Origin: an uncultured bacterium
GTDB taxonomy: Bacteria; Muiribacteriota; Ozemobacteria; Ozemobacterales; Ozemobacteraceae
NCBI GenBank assembly: GCA_946407375.1
Contig: CAMJNS010000001.1
Location: 5,159-69,158 of the forward strand
DNA: 64,000 bases
Direction: 5' to 3'
The first letter of the stretch is position 1; the number at the start of each line of letters is the position of its first letter. Shown in pieces: positions 31,359-61,971 of this stretch. A program made the translations under genes and the position numbers. The notes beneath the pieces were generated by a model. It was not told where the DNA came from. It did no database searches and saw only the letters and a list, made by a program, of their open reading frames with translations.

Positions 31359-31517
31359 GTCTCCCAGAATGAAGCCAATTTGGGAGAATATTAGCTCCAT
31401 TCAAATTTTATCTAATATATTAGTTCCTGCCTAACAGATTAATTTATTTTTGAAAAAAGTACAAGCCCTTTTAGAAAAAAACACTGGGCAAAGTATAAAA
31501 AAATAAAAATATACGAA

Positions 31518-38501: not shown

Positions 38502-39188
38502 TTATTTATATTTCTTATAAGAGTGACTAACTACCAAAGCTATTATTTCTTTGGCTTCTAATTCCTTCAAAGGCTCGACAGACTTTAGCAAAGTAGTTCC
38601 AGTAGTTGCCACATCATCAACTACAATAAGACGTTTTCCCCTAAAAGCAGATTTTATTATATCTGAAGATAGAGCAAAAGCATTATCTAGATTATTATTT
38701 CTTTCAGACTCATTACAGCTAGCCTGAGGCTTAGTATACCTTTTTCTAATTATCGCTGGACTAAAATGGCAACCAACCTTTTTGGCATAAGACTCTGCTA
38801 AAACCCAAGCTTGATTAAAACCTCTTTCCTCAAGACGTTTCTCATGCATTGGAACAGGAATAATAACATCTTCTTCTTTAATGAAACTTTTTAAATCAGC
38901 TTGCTCTGCACAATTTTCTCCAAGAATCTCAGCTAATTTTTTGGAAGGTTTGTATTTTATAATTTTAATTAAATCTGAAGTAAAATCATCATAACTACTC
39001 ATTGTATATATAGGAAAATCGCAAGTAGTGTCTTTTACTTCTTGAGGTTTATGAATAGATTTTTTTAGTTTTTCTTTGCAGTCTTCGCATAAAACTATCC
39101 CATAATCACAACTATTTTTACAGACAAGACACCGAAAAGGGAAAAAAATAGATAAAAAATGGTTTAACAGTTTTTTTAATCTAAACAT
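38502..39188 (-). CDS. comFC: ComF-family protein (ComFC/phosphoribosyltransferase domain) with an N-terminal Cys-rich zinc-finger.
   Basis: N-terminal CxxC...CxxC. C-terminal ...RLIVVDDVATTGTTL... is the PRTase motif. 228 aa. Confidence 0.7.
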   Translation of the reverse strand: MFRLKKLLNHFLSIFFPFRCLVCKNSCDYGIVLCEDCKEKLKKSIHKPQEVKDTTCDFPIYTMSSYDDFTSDLIKIIKYKPSKKLAEILGENCAEQADLKSFIKEEDVIIPVPMHEKRLEERGFNQAWVLAESYAKKVGCHFSPAIIRKRYTKPQASCNESERNNNLDNAFALSSDIIKSAFRGKRLIVVDDVATTGTTLLKSVEPLKELEAKEIIALVVSHSYKKYK

Positions 39189-45438: not shown

Positions 45439-45627
45439 AAGCTCCTACTTATTTTCATTATCAATATAATTATAGATTGTAAGATGGTACATTGTTTTTC
45501 TATGATTGTCAATAATTACCGATAACTTTGCCTATTAATGAATAAAAACTAAATTACTATTTTACTAGCAACACTAAAACATAGTACAATAGTTAAAAAA
45601 TATCATATGTTGGAGTAACTTAATAAA

Positions 45628-47727
45628 ATGCCTAACTGCCAATATTGCAACAAACCTGTTATTTCTGGAAACATTTGTCCTGAATGTGCTCAACTTCGCC
45701 AAAGCAATAATCAGCAACAGCAACGTCCTACAGGTGGTTTTTCCTTAAATAGTCTACTACGCAATTCTTTTCCCACACCACCTTCAAGGCAGCAAAACAA
45801 TCAACCCAACATAGCCCCTGTTACTCCTTCAACTCCAGTTCAACAACAAGCTGTTCCACAGATTCCAACCCCTAGACCAAACATAAATCAACAAAATCCT
45901 CAACAAGGATTTAATTTAAATCGTCCGCAGGTTCAACCACAAGTTCAGCCACAAATTCAACCTGCAACTCAATTTCAAAACCAGCAACCAGCTTACCCTA
46001 GGCCGCAACAGCAAGCAAACTACGCCCCAGATCCATCAGTCAGTGCTGCTTCTCTAGATAATATTAGCGGTCCTAGCAATAGCGATAGAAAAGATAAAGA
46101 TATTTCCCAAGAAGAAAAAGCACTTAGAGAAAGAGTGTTTAATTCTCCTGCAACTGGTTTTGGCGATGAAGAATTAGAAATTACAGTTTTATCAGGAATT
46201 ATGAAAGATCAATATGTTCTTGAATCTCTAAAAGGGAAAGGATTAACTGTTGGTTTGTTTTCTAACCACCATACAAGAAGTATTTATCAAGCTATTCTTT
46301 CTTTAAGAGACGAAAGTTCTTCTGCTTCCAAAGTAGATAAAATAATTCTGAAAAATAAACTGCGCCAAATGAACATTTTTGATGACACAGCAACAAGATT
46401 GCTTGATAAAATATCTGATGCTGTTCCACCAAGTGTTGAACAAGCAACAAAGTATCTGGAACTTCTAAAAGAACAGGCTCTCAAACGAAAACTTAAAGAA
46501 GTTGCTCAGAATATTAGTGGATATATAGAAACCCCTCCAACAGATAACAGTATTACAATAGAAACATTCACAAATAGAGTTATCCAAGACGTTAGAGATA
46601 TTCAAAAATCAAAAACAACAAAACGCATTAATCTTGTAAAAGAAGAAATGCGAGACATTATCAACGATATAGACCAACGTGAAGTTACAGGTGAAATAGA
46701 CATTATCGGCTATTCCTTTGAACCAATGCATTATCTATGTCAAGCAGTATCTGGCTTCAGAAAAGGCTTTATGTATGCTATAGCAGGAGCTCCTAGACGT
46801 GGTAAAACAACTTTCACTCTAGAATTAGCCACTAGAGTAGCTACTTTAAATAAAATTCCAGTTTTGTTTTTTACATATGAACAAACTAAGAAGAACTTAA
46901 CTTATCGTTTGCTTGCAAAAGAAAGCCGTTTAAACCCTGACATGCTTCAACGAAAGAAAATTCGTTCAGACATGATAAATGATGCAAAATTTTCCGGTGG
47001 CTGGAAAAAAATGCAAGAATATATGAATTACTTCTATATTATAGAGGCCACAAAAGAAGATACAATCGACAGGATTCGTTCTTATGCATATAACGTTATG
47101 CAAGACTTTAACACAAACGATATTATGATTTTCGTTGATTATATTCAAAAAATGCCTCTTTCCAGAAATTACATGGATGAAAAATTCAAAGTTGAAGAAA
47201 TATCAACAGAATTAAAGGGCTTAAGTATCGAACTAAATAATCCTATTATGACAATTAGTTCTCTTTCCAAGGAAGGTTGTTTAATAGATGCCTCAAACGA
47301 TGCTGAAAGACCAACAATGTATCACTGTAAAGGGTCTGGCGATCTTGAATACGATTTGGACTGTGCAATGATTCAAGCCAAAGATTGGGGCGATACAAAA
47401 GAACTTTATCAACAGCTTCAACAAAAAGCAGAACAATTGGGTAAAGACACTACACGTATACCTAAAGTTGACGTTGTTAACCTTTATCTGGACAAAAATC
47501 GTGACGCTCCAGAAGGAATTTTCTCTGTAATTCAATACTTGTTCTTTATTGAAGATAATAAATTCATAGAATTAGGTCCAAAATATGAAGATGACCGCTA
47601 TAGATTTAGTAAAATTGAAGAATTAGTAAACAGACTGATCGAACAGAACTTCATTATTTTCTTCGACAAACCGGCAAATAGCGGTTATAACAAAGGCAGA
47701 GTATCTATTAAACTTAAAAATTTCTAA
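45628..47727 (+). CDS. DnaB-family helicase-like ATPase with an N-terminal Zn-ribbon and a Q/P-rich low-complexity linker; the helicase motifs are divergent.
   Basis: N-terminus CQYCNKPV..CPEC is a zinc ribbon, followed by ~130 aa of Q/P-rich sequence. A DnaB N-domain-like region follows. Walker A is GAPRRGKTT and Walker B is IMIFVDYIQKM. H3/H4 are substituted: ISSLSKEG replaces SQLNR, and MYHCKGSGDLEYDLD replaces SDLRESGSIEQDADL. Confidence 0.7.
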   Translation: MPNCQYCNKPVISGNICPECAQLRQSNNQQQQRPTGGFSLNSLLRNSFPTPPSRQQNNQPNIAPVTPSTPVQQQAVPQIPTPRPNINQQNPQQGFNLNRPQVQPQVQPQIQPATQFQNQQPAYPRPQQQANYAPDPSVSAASLDNISGPSNSDRKDKDISQEEKALRERVFNSPATGFGDEELEITVLSGIMKDQYVLESLKGKGLTVGLFSNHHTRSIYQAILSLRDESSSASKVDKIILKNKLRQMNIFDDTATRLLDKISDAVPPSVEQATKYLELLKEQALKRKLKEVAQNISGYIETPPTDNSITIETFTNRVIQDVRDIQKSKTTKRINLVKEEMRDIINDIDQREVTGEIDIIGYSFEPMHYLCQAVSGFRKGFMYAIAGAPRRGKTTFTLELATRVATLNKIPVLFFTYEQTKKNLTYRLLAKESRLNPDMLQRKKIRSDMINDAKFSGGWKKMQEYMNYFYIIEATKEDTIDRIRSYAYNVMQDFNTNDIMIFVDYIQKMPLSRNYMDEKFKVEEISTELKGLSIELNNPIMTISSLSKEGCLIDASNDAERPTMYHCKGSGDLEYDLDCAMIQAKDWGDTKELYQQLQQKAEQLGKDTTRIPKVDVVNLYLDKNRDAPEGIFSVIQYLFFIEDNKFIELGPKYEDDRYRFSKIEELVNRLIEQNFIIFFDKPANSGYNKGRVSIKLKNF

Positions 47728-47779: not shown

Positions 47780-49549
47780 ATGATTACTATTAAAAGCATT
47801 TTAAAAACAGGAATATATTTTATTATAGCCTGCTATTTAGCTATAACTCTGTCTGGTTGTCAAGGAGGAGCTACAGGACTTATAAGCATAACTCCGGAAC
47901 AATATCTAGCTTCTGCCAAAGAACAATTTGAAACAATGGATGAACGTGACTATGAAATAAGAGATTTAGATGAAATCATAAGAGTTTTAGAAAATGCTGA
48001 AAAAGGAGCTAAAAAATCTGAAACTATTGATAGATCGAGAATGTATTTGACTCTCTTATATACCATGAAAGCAAGAAAGCAATATCAAAATGCTTTAATG
48101 AAAGGCGAATATATAGCAAACAGACCAGAACCCTTTTACACTATAAATACAAAAGATGTCAAAGAAACTCTCAGAACAGCAAAGAAATGGCTAAGACAGA
48201 CTAATTCTACATTTAAAACCAAGGCAATATTAGCTGATTTTAATTATGTAAAAGGCATTTATTATACACAAAAGATGCTTACACAGCAAAGTAGAGAAAG
48301 ACAAGAAAGCTTAGATGAAGCCATAATAAGTTTTAGAAGATGCTTAGGAATTGCTCCTAGTTATATAGGAGAATTTAAACTTTTTGGAATGCCCCAAACA
48401 GACCGTGAAGTAAAACTAAAATTAATTGAATGCTTAGCTGAAGGTGGTATGGCCGCAGATGCATATGGAATACTTTCTGAATTCAGTTTTGCTCCAATAA
48501 TACCAATATCTGGAGCAAATGAAAGCTATGATTATCAATGGATACATATGAAAGCCTTAGTTCTTGGCTGTATGGGAATGTATGAAGAAGCTGCAAAGAC
48601 ATTAAACAGATTTAAAGTAGTTTCACCCGTAGATTATCCTATGGTAGATGAATCAATATGGCTTTTAGAAGGAATATACAAAAAGCTTTACGAAATAACA
48701 AAAGAAGAAAAATACGATATGGAAGCCAAAATAGCAGCTTCGATATTAAAAAAGCTAGGCGGTCCTTATTCAACAGAAACCTATTCTGACGCTTCTTTAA
48801 TATTTCCAAAACAAATGCCTGGCGATTTAGAATACAACAAATCTGTAATAGATTTTTATAATGGCAAGTTTTCAAAATCTTTAGAAATACTAAATAAAAT
48901 TAATAATAGAAGTGTTATGACAAATAGCAACAGAGTATCAGCAAAGCTATTAAGAATTGAAGCAATGCTTTATTCAGGGAAAAAGCTTAGTGATGATTGT
49001 ATTGAAGACTTAATTTCACTATCTGGCAACAAATATTTAAATCAACTTCAAAAAAGTAAACTTGGATATTTAATTGCCAGATATATTATGGATGAAGATT
49101 CAACTTTCAATACAAGTAGAGTTAATCATGAAGGACAAAGCTTTGTAAGAAGTTTTTTAGGGAAACCCTGGACAATAGATTTAAAATACAAAAAAGGAAG
49201 TATTAAGCGTATAAAAAATACTAAAAAAGATACTCGAAGCATAAGAAAAGATGATAAGACCAAAAATAAAGAAGATGAGATAGAAATAGAACCAGGAGAA
49301 TTGATTGCAGAAATATATGCAAACAAAGCAGAAGATTGGGTAGTAAGTTCTAATATTTATTTAGTAGCTTTACCAGAAATGAATATGCTTACAACTACAA
49401 GAATTGTTGGACGTGAAGAAGATGGAAAATGGATATTTAAAGATAATCAACTTGATAGCATAAAAAATAGAAACTTCTATTTGGTTATTTTTGAATATGA
49501 TAATTCTGATAGTGACAAATCTATTCAAGGCTACATTTATAATAATTAG
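47780..49549 (+). CDS. Large lipoprotein (589 aa), predicted helical/TPR-like, unknown function.
   Basis: Lipobox LSGC after a hydrophobic N-terminal segment. No recognisable catalytic motifs. Confidence 0.55.
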   Translation: MITIKSILKTGIYFIIACYLAITLSGCQGGATGLISITPEQYLASAKEQFETMDERDYEIRDLDEIIRVLENAEKGAKKSETIDRSRMYLTLLYTMKARKQYQNALMKGEYIANRPEPFYTINTKDVKETLRTAKKWLRQTNSTFKTKAILADFNYVKGIYYTQKMLTQQSRERQESLDEAIISFRRCLGIAPSYIGEFKLFGMPQTDREVKLKLIECLAEGGMAADAYGILSEFSFAPIIPISGANESYDYQWIHMKALVLGCMGMYEEAAKTLNRFKVVSPVDYPMVDESIWLLEGIYKKLYEITKEEKYDMEAKIAASILKKLGGPYSTETYSDASLIFPKQMPGDLEYNKSVIDFYNGKFSKSLEILNKINNRSVMTNSNRVSAKLLRIEAMLYSGKKLSDDCIEDLISLSGNKYLNQLQKSKLGYLIARYIMDEDSTFNTSRVNHEGQSFVRSFLGKPWTIDLKYKKGSIKRIKNTKKDTRSIRKDDKTKNKEDEIEIEPGELIAEIYANKAEDWVVSSNIYLVALPEMNMLTTTRIVGREEDGKWIFKDNQLDSIKNRNFYLVIFEYDNSDSDKSIQGYIYNN

Positions 49550-50938: not shown

Positions 50939-51574
50939 TTATTGTGTAGCCTGTAAAACCCAGTTAACCTTACGAGGAGTAATAACCATAAAAATAGTTT
51001 TTACTCTAGGATCATCATCTGGATTTTCTAATATCTTTGCTTTATCTTCTTCTGAAAGTTTATTAAACTTTTCTGAATAAAGAATTTTCATTGAAACTTT
51101 AACCCAAACCTGAGCATTAAGTGTTAATTCAGATTCAACAAATGCATTTGCATCCCTATAACTGAAGTCATATTCGAAAGATAAAATCTGACCATCGTCA
51201 AATAAAAATTGTTTCATTTCTGAAACATCAGGGTCAGGTTCGTCTATTGCTCCTTTTTCACCACGATACATTCTTCTTGTTTCTTCATCGTAAAAATATA
51301 CCATTGTCTTCGTAGCAGACATAGGAATATTCAACATTCCATTACGCAATTCTGGCTTTGCTGCAGCATTTCTTAATTCATTTCTCAAACCAGACATTAT
51401 AATACGTGTAGTTTGTAAAATATCTAACTTATTCTGAGAATGTAAAAAAGATTGATTAAAAGACTTAAATATCTGATAAACAGAACCAGAAAGCAATACA
51501 AATATACCCATAGTGAAAATAACTTCTACCATAGTAAAAGCTTTTCGTTTTTTGTTTAAATAATTACTCATCAT
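50939..51574 (-). CDS. Type IV pilin-like / pseudopilin protein (prepilin-type N-terminal methylation domain).
   Basis: ...KKRKAFTMVEVIFTMGIFVLLSG is a prepilin leader plus hydrophobic helix. Confidence 0.6.
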   Translation of the reverse strand: MMSNYLNKKRKAFTMVEVIFTMGIFVLLSGSVYQIFKSFNQSFLHSQNKLDILQTTRIIMSGLRNELRNAAAKPELRNGMLNIPMSATKTMVYFYDEETRRMYRGEKGAIDEPDPDVSEMKQFLFDDGQILSFEYDFSYRDANAFVESELTLNAQVWVKVSMKILYSEKFNKLSEEDKAKILENPDDDPRVKTIFMVITPRKVNWVLQATQ

Positions 51575-51575
51575 A

Positions 51576-52022
51576 TTAATAATAATTATACCTTGGATCT
51601 GTTAAAACAGTAACAAAAGTTAAATCAGGAATTTCATTTCCTTTAACCTGTTGATGTTTTGCTCTAACAACAACTTCGACTTTAAGCAAATATTGAGCCT
51701 TTGAACCTTCTGGAGCGGGTTCAATTAATGTTAAAGAACAATTTGGCTCAGATATTTCATAACCATTTTTATCAGCTATAATTTTTAAGTCAACAAAATC
51801 ATCGTCTTTAGCTATTTTCTGAGCTTTATCATAACCTAAAGTTCTCGCAAGTTCTAAAACTGAAGCACCCATCAATGTTGAAATAATTCTATTATCAGCT
51901 CTACTTATTCTTTGTTGCCCAGATTTTAATAAAGAATAAACGGGCAATAATCCACAAGAAATTAAAACAAGCACAACAAGTATTTCAACCATTGTAAATG
52001 CTTTTCGGTTTTTGCTAATCAT
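51576..52022 (-). CDS. Type IV pilin-like / pseudopilin protein.
   Basis: MISKNRKAFTMVEILVVLVLISCGLL is a prepilin N-terminus. It overlaps the upstream gene by 4 nt. Confidence 0.65.
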   Translation of the reverse strand: MISKNRKAFTMVEILVVLVLISCGLLPVYSLLKSGQQRISRADNRIISTLMGASVLELARTLGYDKAQKIAKDDDFVDLKIIADKNGYEISEPNCSLTLIEPAPEGSKAQYLLKVEVVVRAKHQQVKGNEIPDLTFVTVLTDPRYNYY

Positions 52023-54559
52023 CTTTCATACTTCCAATCGAATTTTCCAACTCCGCCTGTTACTATTTTAGCAACATACATGCTATCCATCAATTCAGGT
52101 CTTTGATTACGCCAAATACCATTTAATGGATTATATATTATTACATTTTCTTGATCTACTTCTGGGAGATGTTGTTTTAAATCCAAATAAGGTGTGACCA
52201 CAGTACCTTTTATGGTAATAGGTTTTGGTCCTTTTATAATTAAAGGTCGACAAACAGATATTAAATTTGCTTCTACCAAACACCTATTTCCTTGTGCCTG
52301 TTCAGTATTAATAGCAATCTGAGGTGCTATAATCGTTATTAAATGATTACCTAGCGAAGATTCTAACGCTGCTTCATCTGGAGTATCTACTGATAGGAAA
52401 TCTCCTTTAATCGCAATGTCTCCACCCATCATACCTGGGCTAGAGTATATAATTCCATGACCTCTATACCTTAAATTTCTTAAAGCTAAATCATCGGAAT
52501 CATTAAGAGCAAGAATTCCGTTAAGTTCTAACGTCTGGTTATTTGCACCACTCATATAAGACTGAACATTATCTACATATTTATAAAAGAATCTGTCGTA
52601 AGCAACTCCACCAATAGCAACAGTTTTTCTTCCTCTAAAGAAATCTTCTGTACTTCGAGGAATAAAATAAAAATCCATTAAAAAGGCTTGGGCCAAATCT
52701 CCTGGTAAAGCATAGCTTAATGCACCTTCATAAAATTCTCTCATAGGAGATTGTCCTATTACAGTACCCATATCAGAAGGAACGGAACCATAAGGATAAG
52801 GAGCACTTTCTAGATAACCACCCATATAATCCTTTAACTTACCTTTATATTCTTCTTGTTTATCCTGAATTCTATTAAGGAAATGGGCAAGACCCTTATT
52901 ATAGAGTTCCATACCAGAATCGCTCATAAAGTTCTTGTATTTTTTATATTCATGTAAGCCTTCTGGAAAATCATTCCAATTTTTAATTAATTTATTAACA
53001 TGGTCAATAGGAACACCTGCATTTAGGAAAAGCATCTTTGCTTGAGTTGCATTCATTTCTTTATCATCTTCTATCCCAAGCATATTAAATATACTATCGT
53101 TTACATATGGCAACTCAATTTCTTCACCTGTTTTATCTATCTTAAGCTGAACAGCTCTAAAATACTGTCTCACAGCTGGTCCATAAATCAAAGTAGGAGA
53201 TACTTTTGAAAAATCAGCACCTGATTTTGGCATGTAATTGGTTGCCGAAGTTGGCAGAGCAACCCCAAAAGGATGGAATCCACTAAGCTCCAAATTTGGA
53301 GTCATACGTTCCATGAACAACCTTTCAGCAGTACCTTGTTCGTATTGTCCTACCATAGTCCCAGTATAAGCTTCATAGCTCTTAAAACAATTAATAAAAG
53401 ATGGGGGACCATTAGGCACACTTTCTAATAATTCTTTGCCTGAACCAACATTAAATATTCTAACTTGATTTTTATTACCCCATCCTGTAAACCATAAAAT
53501 ACCATCTTTGGTTTTTTCTTGCCCCTGCAATACCATATACTTTTTAACATAATTTTTCATTCCAGTCCAAGGAACGTCAAAAAGCAAAAAGGCATTATCT
53601 TGCCCATTCATCATATATTTTACATTTTCATTAGGGTCATAATCATCATTACTGCCAAATAACAACTTAGCCCCATTTGTAGAACGAATGTAAACAGAAG
53701 TACCAGTATTTGAAAAAGTATTAAGATCTTGCCCTAAGAAAACTCTACCTGGAGGAGTAACAGCCTTTTCACCAGTTCTTGAAAGCATATCTTCCCAACC
53801 ATCACTACCGCTGTAGTCTCGAACAGGATCAAAATTAGCCTTAACAAAATTCCAACCATTATCTAATCTAAGACGTTGATTCTGCAAAATAGAAGATGGG
53901 TAAGTATTAAAATTAGAATTACCACCAACACTAGCATCTCTTACAAATAAAGTAAAATAGTTATAAGGTGGCACAAAAGTTTTAACACATCTAATCAAAA
54001 AATTTAAAGATACTTTAGCTTCGTGACCTTTAAATTTAACAATAGCAGTAACAATCAAGTCGCCCTGCTTTTCTTTCAAATCCTGTTTAATCTTGTAAAG
54101 AACATTATCACCACTAGAGGCTTCTACAGGATTTATATGTTGCAATCTCAATGTTGCATTTATAATAAAATCATTTGAACTTGTTAATCCTCTTTCAAAT
54201 CTTAACCCATAGGTTTGTCTAGCGATTTCTCTAGTAAAAACAGTAAGGTTAGCAACCTGATTAGCATCAAGAGTTATGTCTTTAGATACATCTAAATCAT
54301 GAGCCCTTAAAACCTTATATAGTTGGTTATTACTATCATCATGATTCAATGAATTTTTTAGTCTGGCAACAAATTCTTCTATAGCTGATTCGGCAAGACT
54401 AAAAGCGACTTCTGATTCATAAGACATTGAAGAAGAATAGTCTTCGGAACCTGTGAAAAATGTAAAAGCGAACCCCATAATAAATATTACTGTAAGTAAC
54501 GTAAGGGTTAACAAAAACACAGATCCACGTTTACTCGAAGTCATATTTTTTATCTCCAA
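52019..54559 (-). CDS. Very large PilX/GspK-like protein (846 aa).
   Basis: SKRGSVFLLTLTLLTVIFIMGFAFTFF...SLAESAIEEF is a PilX_N/GspK-type N-terminus. It heads a minor-pilin operon. Confidence 0.55.
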   Translation of the reverse strand: MEIKNMTSSKRGSVFLLTLTLLTVIFIMGFAFTFFTGSEDYSSSMSYESEVAFSLAESAIEEFVARLKNSLNHDDSNNQLYKVLRAHDLDVSKDITLDANQVANLTVFTREIARQTYGLRFERGLTSSNDFIINATLRLQHINPVEASSGDNVLYKIKQDLKEKQGDLIVTAIVKFKGHEAKVSLNFLIRCVKTFVPPYNYFTLFVRDASVGGNSNFNTYPSSILQNQRLRLDNGWNFVKANFDPVRDYSGSDGWEDMLSRTGEKAVTPPGRVFLGQDLNTFSNTGTSVYIRSTNGAKLLFGSNDDYDPNENVKYMMNGQDNAFLLFDVPWTGMKNYVKKYMVLQGQEKTKDGILWFTGWGNKNQVRIFNVGSGKELLESVPNGPPSFINCFKSYEAYTGTMVGQYEQGTAERLFMERMTPNLELSGFHPFGVALPTSATNYMPKSGADFSKVSPTLIYGPAVRQYFRAVQLKIDKTGEEIELPYVNDSIFNMLGIEDDKEMNATQAKMLFLNAGVPIDHVNKLIKNWNDFPEGLHEYKKYKNFMSDSGMELYNKGLAHFLNRIQDKQEEYKGKLKDYMGGYLESAPYPYGSVPSDMGTVIGQSPMREFYEGALSYALPGDLAQAFLMDFYFIPRSTEDFFRGRKTVAIGGVAYDRFFYKYVDNVQSYMSGANNQTLELNGILALNDSDDLALRNLRYRGHGIIYSSPGMMGGDIAIKGDFLSVDTPDEAALESSLGNHLITIIAPQIAINTEQAQGNRCLVEANLISVCRPLIIKGPKPITIKGTVVTPYLDLKQHLPEVDQENVIIYNPLNGIWRNQRPELMDSMYVAKIVTGGVGKFDWKYER

Positions 54560-55124
54560 TTTTTGTAGCAGAAGCTATAAAATCTTGACAAATCATCCCA
54601 TCTAAATAGGCCTTTTTGTATCTTTTATCCTTTTGAACTTCTGTCATAGCTTCCATCATCTTCTTATATGAATGTTTGCGTCGCCCTGGCTGTTCTTTCT
54701 TACCATATACCATTGCTTCAAAAGCATAAATCTGCATCATAAGATAAGGATCATTATTTACACCTTGTTTGATTCGTTCTATTTCTCTAAGGGCACTATC
54801 GTAATTGCGGTCCTTATACATCTTATTTGCATATTCAAACTTTTCATACAATTCGTTAGTTCGTTCGTCACTAGGTCTTAACGGTAACTCACCGTATAAA
54901 TCTATGTCTATATCACCAAATTCATTCTCGCTTACAGATAGAGCTTTATTTTTTTTATCAAGTTTTTTATTTGATTTTTTTTTAATATTCTCTACTAAAG
55001 TGGAATTACCATTTTTTTTATCAGTCAACTTTTTACGCCCACAACAACCTTCTAGCCAAACAGCCATTAGGAGTACAGTCATAAAACATACCCAACGATA
55101 TAAATAGCTTATTTTACAGGTCAT
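54531..55124 (-). CDS. Small lipoprotein, helical (TPR-like), first gene of the minor-pilin operon.
   Basis: The internal start MTVLLMAVWLEGCCG (55082) gives a signal peptide plus lipobox. K-rich linker. It overlaps the PilX-like gene by 29 nt. Confidence 0.45.
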   Translation of the reverse strand: MTCKISYLYRWVCFMTVLLMAVWLEGCCGRKKLTDKKNGNSTLVENIKKKSNKKLDKKNKALSVSENEFGDIDIDLYGELPLRPSDERTNELYEKFEYANKMYKDRNYDSALREIERIKQGVNNDPYLMMQIYAFEAMVYGKKEQPGRRKHSYKKMMEAMTEVQKDKRYKKAYLDGMICQDFIASATKIGDKKYDFE

Positions 55125-55262
55125 AGTAGTAATAAAAAATTTAGAGATATTATTATTTTATTCTATTAATATAAATTAGTCAACTTACATAAATGTAAAA
55201 TTTAATTAATTAATTCTCTATATTTCTTGACAACAACAAGTAATAAAGCTAAACTTCCCATT

Positions 55263-55964
55263 ATGAAAAGTACATTGATTAAAAACATTAATTATATTCT
55301 TATAACCTCCTTATTGCTGTCTTCTCCTTTGTTTGCCAAAAACAATAATAAGCAAACAGCAGAAGAACCCAAGTCGCATAATTTCATCGCCTTTGATGAT
55401 GCAGTTTACAACACTTCTCCAGATAAACGTATTGGGGCGAAGATACTAGTCGACACTAATCGAGTCGGTCCTTCAATAGCCGCAATGACTCATCTAACAT
55501 ATTTGCCTGGTGCACATGTAACTAGCCATAGACACGTATATGTTACGGAAATCATTTATGTACTTGAAGGAAACCTTACCGTAAGAATAGGCACAGAAAC
55601 TAAAATTTTAGGGAAAGACAGTACTGCCTTCGTTCCTCCCAAAACCTTTCATGAACTAATGAATGATTCAGCAGATGTTGTAAAATTCTTGCAGTATTAT
55701 TCTCCCTCTGGAGCAGAAGAAGAATATCGCAACTGGGAAAACCCCAAAACAGCTGAAGCCAAAGCTCAAGCAGAAGAAATAGAAAAACAAATTGAGCAAA
55801 AAAATAAAGGACCAGAAGAAATACAAGGACCAGCTCCTTTAACAGTACCTGGCAGTCCCACATCTGTAAAACTTGGCGATGTAAAAATGGAATCTGAAGA
55901 TGAAAGTTCTAAGAAAAAAGAATTACTTTTGAATTTAAAACCAACTTCAGAAAAAAAAGAGTAA
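55263..55964 (+). CDS. Exported cupin-domain protein.
   Basis: Signal peptide MKSTLIKNINYILITSLLLSSPLFA. ...HRHVYVTEIIYVLEGNLTVRIG...FHELMN is a cupin beta-barrel motif. The track start at 55227 overlaps a TTGACA -35-like hexamer, so 55263 is preferred. Confidence 0.55.
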   Translation: MKSTLIKNINYILITSLLLSSPLFAKNNNKQTAEEPKSHNFIAFDDAVYNTSPDKRIGAKILVDTNRVGPSIAAMTHLTYLPGAHVTSHRHVYVTEIIYVLEGNLTVRIGTETKILGKDSTAFVPPKTFHELMNDSADVVKFLQYYSPSGAEEEYRNWENPKTAEAKAQAEEIEKQIEQKNKGPEEIQGPAPLTVPGSPTSVKLGDVKMESEDESSKKKELLLNLKPTSEKKE

Positions 55965-55974
55965 TGGTGATTCA

Positions 55975-56727
55975 ATGACTGAAAATTACGCAAAATCCTA
56001 TTATAGCGAAGGTTTACTTGAAGAAGCAATCCAAGAAAACAAAAGAAAGTTAGAAGCTGATCCTAGCAATCATATGCTTAGATGCAGTCTTGCTAATTCA
56101 CTTTTTAGAATCGGAAAAATAGAAGAAGCAATATCTGAATATCGTAAATGCATTGAAACATCACCTTCTAGTGAATATTGGAATAATTTAGGCAAAGCAT
56201 TATTAAATGCAGGTAAATACGAAGAAGCGCAAAAAGCTTTTATCAATGTATTAGAAAAAAACAATTGGCCTGATGCTCATTTTCATTTGGCTTTAGCCTT
56301 AAGAAGCTCTGGAAAATTAGAAGAAGCCCTAAAAGAATTAGATGAATCTCTCAAGATTAATCCCAAATATCGTGAAGCAATCAATGAAAGAGCACAAATT
56401 CTTGAAACCTTAAACAGAAAAGATGAAGCTTTAACCGAATATAAAAAAGTTATAGCACTTTTCTTTGCTGAATACCAAGCTAGAGATACAGAAGACTATT
56501 GTTATGAAACAGCAGTACTGCTAGACAATAACGATTTAATTGACGAACTAATCAGACAATTACGTCAACATATTCAAAAGTATCCAGGTTTTGCAGACGG
56601 TTATTATAAATTAGGTCAAGCTCTTGAAGCAAAAGGGCTTCGCAACGAAGCAATGATGGCTTTTAGACGTGCATTAGAAATTAATCCTAGCTATGAAATA
56701 GCTAGAAAAAGTTTTTGGAAAAGATAA
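55975..56727 (+). CDS. Cytoplasmic TPR-repeat protein.
   Basis: Repeated A..Y/N..G..EEA..F...L...P TPR pattern throughout. No signal peptide. Confidence 0.7.
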   Translation: MTENYAKSYYSEGLLEEAIQENKRKLEADPSNHMLRCSLANSLFRIGKIEEAISEYRKCIETSPSSEYWNNLGKALLNAGKYEEAQKAFINVLEKNNWPDAHFHLALALRSSGKLEEALKELDESLKINPKYREAINERAQILETLNRKDEALTEYKKVIALFFAEYQARDTEDYCYETAVLLDNNDLIDELIRQLRQHIQKYPGFADGYYKLGQALEAKGLRNEAMMAFRRALEINPSYEIARKSFWKR

Positions 56728-56740
56728 AAGGGTTATATAA

Positions 56741-58477
56741 ATGGTTCCACAATCTGGGAAACCACAAAGAAAGAGGCTAGGGGACATTCTTGTTGAAGCT
56801 GGCGTAATTTCTTTGCAGCAACTGCAAGAAGCTCTTTCTAAACAAAAAACATTAGGGAAAAGACTAGGCAAAGTACTTGTAGATACTGGTCTAACGACAG
56901 AAGACAGTATAGCTACTACTCTTGCCACCCAAATGAATATACCTTATATAAATTTAAATGAAACAACTATAACCCCAGAAGTTCTTACCACGATACCTGA
57001 TGGCATTGTAAGAAGCCATAATCTCCTTCCAGTTAAACTAGAAGGAAATAGACTTCAAATTACAATGGCCGACCCTCTAGATGTCTTCATTATAGATGAA
57101 ATAACATTCCAAACAGGTTATGAACTTGAAATAGGTATTAGCCCAGAGTCTCAAATTGAAGCTGCCATTAAGCATTATTACGGCAACACAGAAAGTTTAC
57201 AGAATGCTGTCGACAACCTTGCTGCTGAACGAAAAACAGAAGTTACCTTAGACGAAAGCTTTTTTACAACATTTGACTTAAACGAAGACGAACAAAAAGT
57301 TCCGATTATCAATTTAGTCAATACTATTATACAACAAGCAATTAACGATAAAGCAAGTGATATTCATATTGAGCCAGACGAAGAAGTTGTCAGAGTTCGT
57401 TATAGAATTGATGGTATTTTAAATGAACTAATGAAAGCTCCAAAATCAATTCAAAGTGAATTGATTTCTCGTTTAAAAATTATGGCTCAAATGGATATTT
57501 CCGAAAAACGTCTTCCTCAAGATGGTCGTATAAAAGTTAAGGTTCAAAATAAAAGTATAGATTTACGTGTTTCATCTCTTCCTACAGTTTTTGGGGAAAA
57601 AATAGTTATTCGTATTCTCGACAAAAGCCGTTTATCATTAACTCTAGACCAAGTTGGTTTCGACGAAAAATTGCTTAGACTTTTTAAAACATTGTCTTCC
57701 GCCCCAAACGGAATTGTTCTTATGACTGGACCTACAGGCTCAGGGAAAACATCCACACTATATGCGGCAATTAACTTCGTAAAAAGCCCTGAAATCAACA
57801 TAACAACAGTTGAAGATCCTGTAGAATATTTAATTCCCAGCATAAATCAAGTTCAAGTTAGATCAGAAATAGGTCTAACTTTTGCAAGAACTCTACGTTC
57901 AATTTTAAGACAAGACCCCAACGTAATCCTAATTGGTGAAATAAGAGATTTCGAAACAGCACAAATAGCAATAGAATCAGCATTAACCGGGCATTTAGTT
58001 TTCTCAACACTTCACACAAATGATGCTGCTTCTGCGGTAACAAGATTAATAGAAATGGGAGTTGAACCTTATTTAGTTGCTTCTGCTGTGATAGGAGTCG
58101 GAGGACAACGTTTAGTAAGAAAGATATGCCCATCTTGTCGTGTTTCTTATGATGTGGAAGACGAAGAACATATTGAAGTTTTAAAAGAATCAGGATTTAA
58201 TAATGTAAAACTTTACAGAGGCAAAGGCTGTCTAACCTGCAGAAAATCTGGTTATACAGGAAGAACAGCTATACATGAAATTATGACAATAAATGACGAA
58301 ATTCATGGATTGATACTCAATTCTGCCTCTGCTCGTGATATTAGACAAGCAGCCGTAAAATCTGGTATGAGAACAATGCGTGTCGACGGCTTACAAAAAG
58401 CTGTTAAAGGCGTAACAACTATTAAAGAAGTTCTAAGATTGACACGTGGCGAAGAAGTAAGAAGAGTTACCGCTTAG
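56741..58477 (+). CDS. pilB: Type IV pilus assembly ATPase PilB (GspE family).
   Basis: N-terminal GSPII_E_N domain (LGDILVEAGVISLQQLQEAL). Walker A LMTGPTGSGKTST. Asp/His boxes. Tetracysteine motif CPSC...CLTC. 578 aa. Confidence 0.9.
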   Translation: MVPQSGKPQRKRLGDILVEAGVISLQQLQEALSKQKTLGKRLGKVLVDTGLTTEDSIATTLATQMNIPYINLNETTITPEVLTTIPDGIVRSHNLLPVKLEGNRLQITMADPLDVFIIDEITFQTGYELEIGISPESQIEAAIKHYYGNTESLQNAVDNLAAERKTEVTLDESFFTTFDLNEDEQKVPIINLVNTIIQQAINDKASDIHIEPDEEVVRVRYRIDGILNELMKAPKSIQSELISRLKIMAQMDISEKRLPQDGRIKVKVQNKSIDLRVSSLPTVFGEKIVIRILDKSRLSLTLDQVGFDEKLLRLFKTLSSAPNGIVLMTGPTGSGKTSTLYAAINFVKSPEINITTVEDPVEYLIPSINQVQVRSEIGLTFARTLRSILRQDPNVILIGEIRDFETAQIAIESALTGHLVFSTLHTNDAASAVTRLIEMGVEPYLVASAVIGVGGQRLVRKICPSCRVSYDVEDEEHIEVLKESGFNNVKLYRGKGCLTCRKSGYTGRTAIHEIMTINDEIHGLILNSASARDIRQAAVKSGMRTMRVDGLQKAVKGVTTIKEVLRLTRGEEVRRVTA

Positions 58478-58492
58478 GAGTAAAACCTTTAT

Positions 58493-59701
58493 ATGAGATA
58501 TTCTTATAAAGCCATAGACATAAGTGGTAATGAAATAACAGGCGAATTAGAAGCTGAAAAAAAAGAAGACGTTGGCGTTTGGCTTTCTGATAGAAATTAT
58601 ATCGTAGTTGAAGTTACCCAAGCAACTCTCCAAACCATAGTTAATACTCCCCAAAAGTATTTGAGAATTCCTCATAAAGACATGAATTTTTTTCTTATCC
58701 AGCTTTCTAACTTAATAACTGCTGGCTGTCCTTTGTTAATGAGTTTAAACGCTCTTCAAAGACAGGTTTCAAACCCTTCTTTAAGATTGCTATTAAAAGA
58801 AGTAAAAGAAAAAATTGAATCAGGCAAATCTTTTTCTGAAGCATTAAAAAGTCATAAAGAAGTCTTTCCATCTCTATTCATTACTATGGTTGAAGTAGGT
58901 GAAGTAGGAGGTATGCTTGGAGAAGTTCTAGAAAGATATTCTTATATATATGACACTATGTATAAACTAGGGAAAAAAGTAATTCAAGCTATGATTTATC
59001 CTTTTTTCCTTTTAATAAGTTCATTAATAGTTGTTGTCAGCTTATTAGTATTCGTTTTTCCAAAGTTTATAGAAGGAACCAGACGTACCGGACATGATCT
59101 TCCTGGAATAACCCAATTTGTTCTAAATGTTTCAAACTTTCTTTCCAATCACTATTTAATAATAATTTTAGCAATAGCTTTGATGATTATGATATGGAAA
59201 ATTATAATGAGTACTACTAAAGGCAGAAAAGTAGTTACAGAAATTTTTACTGAAATGCCTGTTCTGGGAAATGTTTTAAAACATATACAAATAGCTTTGT
59301 TTGCCCGTATACTTGGTACATTGCTTCGATGCGGAGTACCTATATTAACGTCTTTGCAAGCAGTAGAAAAAGCTTTAAGCAACATAATGTACAAAGAAGC
59401 AATGAATGACGTAAGAGAATCTGTCAGCCGAGGAGAATCGCTTTCACAATCGATAGGAAGACATAGAAACCTATTTCCTGAAAGCATTATTTTGATGACA
59501 GATGTTGGAGAACGTAGTGGTAATATGGGTGATATGCTTGAAAAAGCAGGAAATATATTTGAAAGAGATATGGAAATGGCTCTTGAAACAGCTGTTTCAT
59601 TGATACAACCAGCTCTAGTTCTGTTTCTGGCAATATTCATTGTAATTATTGCATTATCAATGTACTTACCATTATTTGACATTGTTAAAGTTGTAGGATA
59701 A
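58493..59701 (+). CDS. pilC: Type IV pilus inner-membrane platform protein PilC (GspF family).
   Basis: 402 aa. Two GspF repeats, three TM segments, PilC-like N-terminus. Confidence 0.9.
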   Translation: MRYSYKAIDISGNEITGELEAEKKEDVGVWLSDRNYIVVEVTQATLQTIVNTPQKYLRIPHKDMNFFLIQLSNLITAGCPLLMSLNALQRQVSNPSLRLLLKEVKEKIESGKSFSEALKSHKEVFPSLFITMVEVGEVGGMLGEVLERYSYIYDTMYKLGKKVIQAMIYPFFLLISSLIVVVSLLVFVFPKFIEGTRRTGHDLPGITQFVLNVSNFLSNHYLIIILAIALMIMIWKIIMSTTKGRKVVTEIFTEMPVLGNVLKHIQIALFARILGTLLRCGVPILTSLQAVEKALSNIMYKEAMNDVRESVSRGESLSQSIGRHRNLFPESIILMTDVGERSGNMGDMLEKAGNIFERDMEMALETAVSLIQPALVLFLAIFIVIIALSMYLPLFDIVKVVG

Positions 59702-59754
59702 ATTATTATTCTATAATATAATATGAAACCTATAGCCAAAAATGTGGAGGCGAT

Positions 59755-60267
59755 ATGAGAAAAGGTTTTTCACTTGTTGAACTGTTAATTGTAGTCCTAG
59801 TAATAGGTATTCTAGTGTCTATTGCAATACCTCGTTATCAGAGTATTGCGTCTATGGCACGTGCAAAATCCTGTCTTTCTAATCAGAAAGGGATAGAAAG
59901 CTTGATTTCTCTTTGGGAAGCTAAAAACTTCGAGTTAGATACAGGCAAAAACAGATGGACGTGGATTGATCGCTCTGGTAATATGCGTTGGAAATATTCA
60001 AATGCACTTTTGCAACTTAACGATACAGCAAAGGACGTTAAACTTTTTATTTGTCCAGAAGCAGCAAATCGTTGGGGTTATACCTGGAACGGTTCCAGTT
60101 ATAGATTCTACAACACAGACAATACCTCTCTATGGATAATAGGCTCTGATGGAAAAATGGGCGGACGCGGAGTTGTTTGTGGTATAAGACTAGGAACCAG
60201 ATGGATTGGTATGAATGGACAAATGGGGGCAGATGGTCAAAAAGACAGTGCTCACCATTATTGGTAA
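59755..60267 (+). CDS. pilA: Type IV pilin (candidate major pilin), prepilin-type N-terminus.
   Basis: MRKGFSLVELLIVVLVIGILVSIAIPRY is a class III signal peptide. Good RBS GGAGG. 170 aa. Confidence 0.8.
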   Translation: MRKGFSLVELLIVVLVIGILVSIAIPRYQSIASMARAKSCLSNQKGIESLISLWEAKNFELDTGKNRWTWIDRSGNMRWKYSNALLQLNDTAKDVKLFICPEAANRWGYTWNGSSYRFYNTDNTSLWIIGSDGKMGGRGVVCGIRLGTRWIGMNGQMGADGQKDSAHHYW

Positions 60268-60277
60268 ATAAAGAATT

Positions 60278-60775
60278 ATGCTGATATGCTGCAGCTCAAA
60301 AATCAGCTTTGTAAAGCCAAATTCTGAAAGTCATTTACGTCTCCACAGACCGAAAACAAAAAATGGCAAATTAAATAATTCTGGCTTTACAATTATAGAG
60401 ATTCTAATAGTAATTATCCTTATTGGAATTTTATCTGGAGCTGCAGTTGGCACTTATTCTGGTGTTATAAAAGACACGAATGAAAGATTGATACATGACA
60501 AATTGCAAACTTTTTTTCAAAGTTGCAAAAATAGAGCTAAGCTGCGAAATCTAAATATAAGAATTACTTATAACGAACAACAAAAGAGTTTTATAAATCA
60601 AGACTCTACAAATTCCTTTATAAGAATTCCTGAAATATACCAAAATAGCATTCCAAAACTCATTGAAATAGATAAAACAGGTAATTTCAAAATTGATGGT
60701 AAAGATATTAATAGCTTGAATATGTTATTAATCAATCCAAATGGAAGTCTAGCGACAATAACGATAAGATTATGA
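60278..60775 (+). CDS. Pseudopilin/minor pilin with an unusually long leader (or mis-set start).
   Basis: ...NNSGFTIIEILIVIILIGILSGAAVGTY is a prepilin motif, but it lies ~40 aa after the only upstream ATG. Confidence 0.55.
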   Translation: MLICCSSKISFVKPNSESHLRLHRPKTKNGKLNNSGFTIIEILIVIILIGILSGAAVGTYSGVIKDTNERLIHDKLQTFFQSCKNRAKLRNLNIRITYNEQQKSFINQDSTNSFIRIPEIYQNSIPKLIEIDKTGNFKIDGKDINSLNMLLINPNGSLATITIRL

Positions 60776-61179
60776 TTAAATTTCATTTACAAAATATAAA
60801 AAAAGGTTTTAGCTTAATTGAAGCTATCTTATCGTTATTAATTTTATCTGGCTCCTTAGCAATAATCTTTTCAGGTTTTGAAATTTCCTCACAACTAAAT
60901 AATTATGCAAATTTTGAATCTGAAGCCGCTTTTTTAGCAGAAAGAGAAATAGAACTCGCCAAATCAGAGTTATTATGTGGAAATCTTAAAGCTGATAAAA
61001 ACAAAAAGTTAAATAGCAGATTCAGACTAAAACCAGGCTGGAAGCTATTTACCATAGTAACAGTTCCAGACGCAGAAAAAGTAGTAAGACTACAAGTCAG
61101 GGTAACTAACTCTGACAGAGAACTACAATTAGAATCCTTTTTATTTTTACCTGAGCAAGGAGAAAATAAAAATGGATAA
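60772..61179 (+). CDS. Pseudopilin/minor pilin.
   Basis: ...KKGFSLIEAILSLLILSGSLAIIFSG is a prepilin N-terminus. 4-nt overlap with the previous gene. Confidence 0.7.
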   Translation: MIKFHLQNIKKGFSLIEAILSLLILSGSLAIIFSGFEISSQLNNYANFESEAAFLAEREIELAKSELLCGNLKADKNKKLNSRFRLKPGWKLFTIVTVPDAEKVVRLQVRVTNSDRELQLESFLFLPEQGENKNG

Positions 61180-61567
61180 AAAAGGATTTTCTTTGCTAGA
61201 AGTTACAATTTCTATGTTTATTATGGGTTTAACCATTACAGCTCTATTAAACTTACTAGATTGGAGTAACTTAAAATATAAAGTTTATGCTAATTCCTGG
61301 AAAGAAAGAAACTGTCTTACAGAAGCTAGAATCTGGATAAGAAATCAAATACTAAAAAACAATAATCTAGACATTAGCATAAAGAGTCTTAAAGAAAACG
61401 TAAAATGTCCTTATGGTTTTGGTTTTTGTGGCTTAGATATAACACAAAAAGATAAAGAAACCTATTTTATCAAAGTAAGTATTTATGAAGATAAAAACCG
61501 TAATGGAATCGCAGAAAGAGATGAAACAACAGCCCGCCTTTTCTGTTTTAGAAGGAGGTCTGTATGA
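61172..61567 (+). CDS. Pseudopilin/minor pilin.
   Basis: MDKKGFSLLEVTISMFIMGLTITALL. 8-nt overlap with the previous gene. Confidence 0.7.
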   Translation: MDKKGFSLLEVTISMFIMGLTITALLNLLDWSNLKYKVYANSWKERNCLTEARIWIRNQILKNNNLDISIKSLKENVKCPYGFGFCGLDITQKDKETYFIKVSIYEDKNRNGIAERDETTARLFCFRRRSV

Positions 61568-61971
61568 ATCGAAGAGGTTTTAGCATTTATCTAACTTTTC
61601 TTGTATCAACAGTAGTTTTTCTTTTGGTTACTGGTAGTCAAGAAATAAGCACTATTACTCTTGATTTAAGCAGATCTGAAGCTATTGATGTTATTGTTTT
61701 CCATGCTGCTGATGGTGGCCTTGAAAAAGGCTTAGCTAAACTTCGAAAAAATTTTAAACAGTTTAACCATTCTTATACATCAGAACTAAAACCAAATAGA
61801 ACAATAAAAGTTTCGGTTAAAGCAACCCAAAATAAAAATCTTATAAATCTTTATTCAGAAGCCATTTTATTGGAAGGGAATAAAGAAGTATCTCGTCGAA
61901 CAATTTCAAGACTAGGCATCACCCGATCTAAAGGAAGACATGGCTGTGGTCAGTTTACGGAGGAAATATGA
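61564..61971 (+). CDS. Small PilX/GspK-like minor pseudopilin.
   Basis: MNRRGFSIYLTFLVSTVVFLL...HAADGGLEKGLAKL is a PilX_N pattern. 4-nt overlap. Confidence 0.6.
   Translation: MNRRGFSIYLTFLVSTVVFLLVTGSQEISTITLDLSRSEAIDVIVFHAADGGLEKGLAKLRKNFKQFNHSYTSELKPNRTIKVSVKATQNKNLINLYSEAILLEGNKEVSRRTISRLGITRSKGRHGCGQFTEEI

Follow-up and report, generated by a model that had tools for sequence, protein, structure and literature searches.

The replicative helicase DnaB is usually seen as a uniform, universal marker. Among related motors, RadA/Sms, a DnaB-type helicase of transformation and recombination, has a C4 zinc finger at its N-terminus and then a RecA-type motor with a KNR-type motif, and T7 gp4 joins a superfamily 4 (SF4) motor to an N-terminal zinc-binding domain on a flexible connection. 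We analyzed a 64,000-nucleotide (nt) stretch of DNA from an uncultured bacterium of the Ozemobacteraceae (GenBank assembly GCA_946407375.1, contig CAMJNS010000001.1, positions 5,159 to 69,158 of the forward strand; hereafter, the window), in which one gene encodes a 699-amino-acid (aa) protein with a DnaB core behind an N-terminal zinc ribbon and a disordered tract. The product is probably a divergent replicative 5′–3′ fork helicase of Riflebacteria with a clade-specific N-terminal module; the DnaB architecture and fold, the invariant catalytic residues, the constraint on the core, the conserved chromosomal position, and a dnaA–gyrA context support this reading. An earlier sequence-only reading of the same DNA had asked whether the protein is a divergent replicative helicase or a non-replicative paralog; this proved to be the right question, whereas the loader-like, signalling, or defence-associated roles it also offered found no support.

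Compared with the DnaB proteins of E. coli, Geobacillus/B. stearothermophilus, and V. cholerae, the window protein has the same domain order, whole-protomer fold, and catalytic residues, albeit at just 22–28% aa identity. It differs in its H3 motif (SSLSK instead of SQL(S/N)R) and H4 motif (KGSGDLEYD instead of RESGxIEQD), in a helical insertion of ~15–25 aa before the arginine-finger strand, and in extensions at both ends (170 aa at the N-terminus and a tail of 45 aa at the C-terminus). Like RadA/Sms, it combines an N-terminal C4 zinc finger with a RecA-type motor; however, RadA lacks the DnaB N-domain (PF00772) that is present in the window protein and has a C-terminal Lon-like domain. Searches of Pfam and NCBIfam identified no Lon-like domain in the window protein, and TIGR00416 was not among the NCBIfam matches at E ≤ 0.1. 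Like T7 gp4, it has an SF4 motor with a flexibly attached N-terminal zinc-binding domain; unlike T7 gp4, it has no TOPRIM/primase domain (a search between the ribbon and the helicase gave no match), the phrog_239 match covers only residues 350–628, and the 130 aa that separate ribbon and helicase are disordered. SPP1 G40P and other phage DnaB-like proteins (3bgw, phrog_19) share the fold at comparable sequence similarity, but the subfamily to which the window protein belongs was not found in phage, viral-contig, or plasmid collections. The KaiC model PF06745 scored 16.7 bits against a cut-off of 26.6 and aligned to only 54 residues around Walker A. Overall, KaiC, RadA, and gp4 were far poorer matches than DnaB.

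The gene and the features of its DnaB core are as follows.

45628–47727, + strand: the whole open reading frame (ORF), 699 aa, encoding a zinc ribbon, disordered linker, DnaB N-domain, linker helix, RecA-like C-domain, and C-terminal tail
46168–46530, + strand: DnaB N-terminal helical domain, residues 181–301 (PF00772; predicted local distance difference test score, pLDDT, of ~88–92 in the core model)
46558–46689, + strand: linker-helix region, residues 311–354, with helices at 311–329 and 337–354; aligns to the DnaB linker
46735–47580, + strand: RecA-like DnaB C-domain, residues 370–651 (PF03796, motifs, and model)
46786–46809, + strand: Walker A, GAPRRGKT, residues 387–394, with K393/T394
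46879–46881, + strand: catalytic Glu418, from motif alignment
47125–47148, + strand: Walker B, MIFVDYIQ, residues 500–507, with D504
47254–47271, + strand: H3, ISSLSK, residues 543–548, with S545 and K548
47329–47355, + strand: H4, KGSGDLEYD, residues 568–576, with K568
47383–47463, + strand: subfamily-specific helical insertion, residues ~586–612, from the core model
47491–47511, + strand: DKNRDAP with K623/R625, the arginine-finger motif
47590–47727, + strand: subfamily-specific C-terminal extension, residues 655–699, with a helix at 659–672 and a basic tail ending in GRVSIKLKNF

Pfam matched PF00772 at residues 181–282 (30.7 bits; cut-off 23) and the DnaB C-domain PF03796 at residues 370–631 (113.6 bits; cut-off 27; E = 1.3e-32), and the NCBIfam DnaB model TIGR00665 aligned end to end, with residues 181–646 on model positions 6–430 of 435. 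A structure predicted for the full-length protein was mediocre (pLDDT 62), and its structural matches were already DnaB only. The core model, built for residues 170–699 from a 77-sequence alignment, was confident (pLDDT 86.3; predicted template modelling score, pTM, 0.69), with the PF00772 region at ~90. Foldseek overlaid the core model as a whole protomer on DnaB structures 9dls, 7t21, and 4esv (from V. cholerae, E. coli, and B. stearothermophilus), with target-normalised template modelling (TM) scores of 0.82–0.83 and a root-mean-square deviation of 4.6–5 Å; the top 50 matches were all DnaB or G40P. Beyond the DnaB fold, the model contains the helical insertion at ~586–612, ahead of the arginine-finger strand, and the C-terminal helix at 659–672 (core positions 490–503), followed by a disordered basic tip. 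When the PDB was searched by single sequence and by family profile, the relatives were replicative DnaB or phage G40P chains only; a search with the C-terminal fragment alone returned 0 matches, and the family profile was needed. The protein is thus a complete DnaB protomer, with an N-domain collar, a linker helix, a RecA motor, an intact ATPase site, and trans-acting K623/R625. The ORF, the N-domain, the linker, and the RecA-like C-domain had all been proposed in the sequence-only reading, and Pfam, TIGR00665, and the model agree with it.

To compare motifs, we used the 88 ordinary DnaBs that scored best against the query. Walker A K393/T394, catalytic E418, and Walker B D504 are conserved in these proteins and in the family, and the same holds for the arginine-finger motif K623-x-R625 (R in 87 of 88). 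The TIGR00665-type H3 motif, S-Q-L-[SN]-R, is replaced by SSLSK: at the Gln position, occupied by Gln in 74 and by Ser in 12 of the 88, the family has Ser (S545), and at the Arg position, which is Arg in 88/88, it has Lys (K548), an unusual residue there. At the H4 Arg, the family has Lys (K568), as do 15 of the 88. Among 334 subfamily sequences, the H3 Gln occurs in none, the H3 Arg position is Lys in all but 11 motif-detected sequences, and Lys at the H4 position is restricted to the Riflebacteria/Wallbacteria clade. R625 is invariant in 334/334, in a set that was itself selected on the DKNRDAP motif.

The changes from SQLNR to SSLSK and from the LRESG arginine to lysine (HCKGSG) had been pointed out from the sequence alone, and alignment with DnaBs confirms both; the accompanying claim that the arginine finger is altered was a mis-assignment. 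Based on PDB alignment, the RESG arginine is residue 381 in Geobacillus DnaC (2vye); in that protein, R420 serves as the arginine finger (PMC3236778). Because the family profile alignment places R420 on query R625, the true arginine finger is R625, which is intact; the RESG arginine is a DNA-loop residue and not an arginine finger. The H3 Gln contacts the gamma-phosphate (PMC1950529). In the window protein, Ser545 would replace this gamma-phosphate-sensing residue, and Lys548 would be a conservative replacement of the H3 Arg. T7 gp4 has a His at the SF4 gamma-phosphate sensor position; since this position varies among SF4 helicases, Ser545 does not imply a dead enzyme.

The substituted H3 and H4 motifs would also fit a DnaB-like protein that has lost catalysis and serves as a scaffold, loader, or signalling ATPase, and degenerate subfamily relatives that consist of the C-domain only do exist in another lineage. 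We consider such a role highly improbable. Walker A, the catalytic Glu, Walker B, and K-x-R are all invariant, whereas the degenerate relatives have visibly lost catalytic residues and show what decay looks like; moreover, other DnaB-like proteins share the H3 Ser (12/88) and the H4 Lys (15/88). Nor is there support for a defence-associated ATPase: the helicase matched 0 families among the PADLOC defence-protein models, and its genomic contexts are housekeeping ones. There is no defence-island context in the window, where the helicase gene is flanked by bamA, ompH, lpxD, lpxC, and lpxA and, on its opposite side, by a lipoprotein-like gene. Six subunits would form a ring on the lagging-strand template and translocate 5′–3′ with ATP; the DNA-binding loops H3 and H4 carry subfamily-specific residues.

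DnaB-domain matches begin only at residue 181, so the first ~170–180 residues constitute an N-terminal extension, with the following features.

45628–45711, + strand: C4 zinc ribbon, residues 1–28, with Cys4, Cys7, Cys17, and Cys20, then a short helix
45712–46137, + strand: Q/P/N-rich disordered linker, residues 29 to ~170 (pLDDT 30–38)
45733–45759, + strand: motif GGFSLNSLL, residues 36–44, Riflebacteria-specific
45931–45962, + strand: tandem 12-bp repeat, 2.7 copies, inside the linker (repeat search)

The sequence-only reading had described an extension of ~170 residues with a C4 zinc ribbon and a Q/P/N-rich low-complexity tract, and each part stands. The four cysteines, spaced CxxC-x9-CxxC, are invariant in 27/27 aligned relatives, and the predicted ribbon has a pLDDT of ~88. 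In Pfam, the ribbon matched only generic zinc-ribbon families, all sub-threshold. Residues 29–156 have a pLDDT of <50, which predicts disorder, and the linker is 19% Q, 15% P, and 11% N. Among orthologs, linker length ranges from 70 to 304 aa and its composition also drifts; only the ribbon and, in Riflebacteria, the consensus GFSLxxLL are conserved. Alignment shows this consensus in all Riflebacteria but not in Wallbacteria. The ribbon is found in all full-length Riflebacteria, Wallbacteria, and Muiribacteriota copy-A proteins, and based on tree and alignment the ribbon with its disordered linker is restricted to the Riflebacteria/Wallbacteria/Muiribacteriota/UBP16 group. A conserved ribbon and motif joined by a freely drifting linker would suit a flexible tether. 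In a hexamer, the N-terminal face of the ring would bear six tethered ribbons, like flexible zinc-binding “hands”; most plausibly, these would serve recruitment or regulation, as a tether to DNA or to primase, DnaA, or DciA during loading. A replicative helicase whose ribbon and tether form a self-loading or recruitment module, replacing part of the loader or of the coupling to primase, may also be envisaged.

The best 120 homologs all came from Riflebacteria/Ozemobacteraceae metagenome-assembled genomes (MAGs), with 55–86% aa identity over the full length, followed by Wallbacteria proteins with 45–53%; the window (GC ~0.34) therefore belongs to a Riflebacteria genome. In these 120 homologs, Walker A GAPRRGKT, Walker B DYIQ, SSL[SN]K, KGSGD[LI]EYD, and KNRDAP are essentially invariant, and a zinc ribbon opens every full-length protein; the substitutions are thus carried by all lineage members. 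Because these sequence features are conserved in >100 orthologs, they are not due to chance. A middle tier of relatives, with 36–39% identity, lacks the N-terminal extension and keeps the hallmark motifs and the C-terminal tail; the C-terminal extension is likewise kept in Riflebacteria and in Wallbacteria copy A. The GTDB species representatives contained 242 subfamily relatives, in Riflebacteria, Wallbacteria, Muiribacteriota, UBP16, Mcinerneyibacteriota, Caldisericota, and CSP1-3/Sysuimicrobiota (including legacy “Armatimonadetes” and ANGP1 labels), as well as in some Acidobacteriota and Desulfomonilaceae. Neighbour joining placed the subfamily on a long stem as a monophyletic group, with one clade per host lineage. 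Based on tree and alignments, these proteins constitute a monophyletic DnaB subfamily whose hallmarks are GAPRRGKT, SS-x-x-K, G-[SG]-GD-[IL]-EYD, and DKNRDAP together with a C-terminal tail. It is a coherent, constrained subfamily spread across several poorly known phyla, it alters two near-invariant residues of the motor loops, and one of its clades adds a zinc ribbon on a long disordered tether. A search of 1.84 billion representative sequences returned just 29 proteins below E = 1e-30.

The searchable literature describes no such subfamily, no zinc-ribbon-tethered DnaB, and no relevant DnaB paralog or pilus-linked DnaB; records at JGI and some at NCBI already title subfamily proteins “replicative DNA helicase.” The DnaB subfamily is previously undescribed; it is a variant of a well-known helicase, not a system of a new kind.

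Its nearest outgroup is a DnaB-like set from short metagenomic contigs (P0155, P0157, P0160, P0164, and P0170) with motifs YEQS, SS..R, KESGEIEYSAD, and KNRNGE and with Ser at the H3 Gln position. Separately, the C-domain-only relatives (P0135, P0137, P0139, P0143, P0144, P0302, and P0303; loci L008, L095, and L096) are ~390–400 aa long and derive from the subfamily; Walker A has decayed and the K-x-R arginine finger is lost, and the “...SLKL” tail is kept. They occur in another lineage (one MAG is labelled Cloacimonetes), always adjoin an epimerase gene and the dcw cell-wall cluster, and may be pseudo-helicases. Short Riflebacteria matches (518–617 aa) were considered as a zinc-less second copy and rejected; they contain linker remnants and the GRVSIKLKNF tail and are truncated gene calls.

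The helicase gene is divergent from a run of envelope genes, and the arrangement flgK-flgN-flgM ... lpxA-lpxC/fabZ-x-lpxD-ompH-bamA is kept in Ca. Rifleibacterium, Ca. Ozemobacter, and one more genus. Against Ca. Rifleibacterium, the helicase core has 80.6% aa identity, compared with 75% for bamA, 68% for lpxA, 60% for lpxC/fabZ, 58% for lpxD, and 55% for a 589-aa neighbour; the ranking is the same against Ozemobacter and the third genus. Judged by these identities, conservation of the core above that of its neighbours is the behaviour of an essential core enzyme. In Wallbacteria HGW-1 (GCA_002838975.1), which has the cluster order dnaA-recF-dciA-remA-gyrB-gyrA, four small genes separate gyrA from the ortholog, which lies ~1.7 kb downstream. 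Elsewhere, the gene sits in an operon pepP-efp-accB-[gene]-accC in a Mcinerneyibacteriota-like clade, adjoins serS or pth in Caldisericota and a Caldisericota-like locus, and adjoins hem genes in Desulfomonilaceae. The rplI–dnaB synteny considered for the Mcinerneyibacteriota-like clade was rejected, as the 143-aa upstream gene is accB and does not encode L9. In high-GC loci, several apparent clusters of neighbours proved to be antisense-ORF artefacts and were set aside. The gene is chromosomal, in a position kept across the phylum, and each host lineage forms its own clade.

The same synteny bears on whether the gene belongs to an integrated phage, plasmid, or other mobile element. DnaB-like helicases are common in phages and plasmids, and the PHROG DnaB model phrog_19 matched the protein with 173 bits (E = 2e-50), no better than the cellular DnaB model (166 bits). 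A mobile origin is nonetheless very hard to credit, given that the bamA/lpx synteny is kept across genera, that no integrase or phage genes lie near the helicase in the window, and that GC content around the gene is uniform at ~0.33–0.35. IMG/VR, the INPHARED phages, and the PLSDB plasmids contained no subfamily members, only ordinary DnaBs with 24–26% identity.

Several observations weigh against the replicative assignment, and most of them would instead fit an accessory, non-replicative DnaB-type helicase that works beside an ordinary dnaB, for example on incoming or recombining single-stranded DNA (ssDNA) in parallel with RadA/Sms, whose zinc finger the N-terminal C4 ribbon recalls. The TIGR00665 score of 166.1 bits is well under the DnaB equivalog cut-off of 385 bits, Lys548 stands where every ordinary DnaB in the comparison has Arg, and a wide gap separates scores within the subfamily (≥320 bits; 320–1570) from those of ordinary DnaBs (~114). 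On its long stem, the monophyletic subfamily is distributed patchily over unrelated phyla and includes sub-groups of Acidobacteriota and of Desulfobacterota (Desulfomonilaceae). Members of Acidobacteriota and Desulfobacterota normally carry an ordinary DnaB, and the patchy spread implies horizontal transfer followed by displacement or addition. In one Wallbacteria order, each genome keeps two intact subfamily copies: copy A, with zinc ribbon and basic tail (L037, L030, L035, L042, and L039), and copy B, a lineage-specific duplicate without ribbon or tail (L050, L054, L061, L066, and L071). Finally, CSP1-3/Sysuimicrobiota genomes place the gene in a type IV pilus operon (L006:5481–13858 and at least 14 loci), in which a TPR-MshEN-T2SSE ATPase, the helicase, pilB, pilT, and pilC follow one another with almost no intergenic gaps. 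Type IV pilus genes also lie ~4 kb from Wallbacteria copy B and 3–9 kb from the helicase in the window, and pilus or type II secretion system (T2SS)-type genes lie 3–16 kb downstream of the window helicase.

We nevertheless regard the accessory role as unlikely. The pilus linkage is absent from Ozemobacter, Caldisericota, Desulfomonilaceae, Acidobacteriota, and the Mcinerneyibacteriota-like clade, and because of this absence we treat it as synteny specific to CSP1-3, the only lineage in which it is conserved; as a trait of the family it was rejected. The protein has the DnaB N-domain that RadA lacks and no Lon-like domain, no gene of the neighbourhood is more conserved than its core, an unusual pattern for an accessory gene, and the Wallbacteria ortholog lies downstream of dnaA-dciA-gyrBA. 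Ordinary DnaB from these lineages appeared in no search, albeit as weak negative evidence. Second-dnaB checks spanned at most 64 kb in the window and 20 kb per related locus, and no second DnaB-like gene was detected in the 64-kb window or within 10 kb of 77 related loci. The best-scoring ordinary DnaBs with names came from unrelated taxa, and the names of these proteins and of the Caldisericota relatives included no Riflebacteria or isolate entries. Replication genes are not mentioned in the genome paper on Riflebacteria or in its supplement. A more far-reaching version, in which the subfamily is a second, chromosomally fixed DnaB-type motor beside ordinary DnaB in at least eight phylum-level lineages, is doubtful; its candidate role, handling ssDNA imported through type IV pili, is suggested by the CSP1-3 pilB-pilT-pilC operon and the RadA-like zinc finger in Riflebacteria and Wallbacteria.

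If the window protein is the sole helicase of these organisms, the known sequence space of working replicative helicases widens, the mere label “DnaB-like C-terminal domain protein” that annotation pipelines assign is explained, and the zinc-ribbon clade becomes a natural system for N-terminal modules that aid helicase recruitment in DciA-using bacteria. If it is instead a second helicase, the subfamily defines a new DnaB-type DNA-processing system.

Two further Wallbacteria proteins contain zinc ribbons. The Wallbacteria DciA (L002:1794–2702) matches PF05258 with 26.8 bits (cut-off 24) and has an internal C4 zinc ribbon, CRECKVLTPSTYCPAC; zinc ribbons are therefore present in both the helicase and the putative operator DciA of Wallbacteria. 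In one Wallbacteria order, the gene directly 3′ of the zinc-ribbon helicase encodes 298 aa, comprising a zinc ribbon at the N-terminus and a nucleic-acid-binding OB-fold domain (L035:10108–11004 and five other copy-A loci).

The features flanking the window helicase gene are as follows.

45561–45590, + strand: promoter-like site (consensus match only)
45612–45615, + strand: ribosome-binding site GGAG, 12 nt 5′ of the ATG (consensus match only)
47780–49549, + strand: downstream neighbour of 589 aa, which has a lipoprotein-type signal (..LSGC) and matches TPR models faintly; no family match

The promoter-like site and the GGAG lie in the AT-rich 189-bp gap between the helicase gene and the divergent bamA. 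A replication origin in this gap was considered and rejected: 21 DnaA boxes were found against 21 expected, with 0 in the gap, and the turns in GC skew track gene strand. With DnaA boxes at chance level and skew following strand, no origin is evident at the divergent gap. On the other side, a 52-bp gap in which no terminator was found separates the helicase gene from the gene for the 589-aa protein. The latter is adjacent and on the same strand in 8 loci of Riflebacteria and of the Wallbacteria HGW-1/Muiribacteriota group, and based on this arrangement it is probably co-transcribed with the helicase.

Farther downstream, a type IV pilus/T2SS-like cluster occupies positions 50939–63818. It includes prepilin-type proteins (50939–51574 on the minus strand, 59755–60267, and 60278–60775), a T2SSE ATPase (56741–58477), a T2SSF protein (58493–59701), a PilM-like protein (61968–63818), and unannotated ORFs of 846 and 197 aa. 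Upstream, two giant ORFs on the minus strand (8093–18118 and 19284–31400) encode proteins of 3341 and 4038 aa, and a gene of ~270 aa comes after each. Beside the lpxA end of the envelope genes, a ComF-like protein (38502–39188, minus strand) combines a phosphoribosyltransferase domain with an N-terminal double zinc ribbon.

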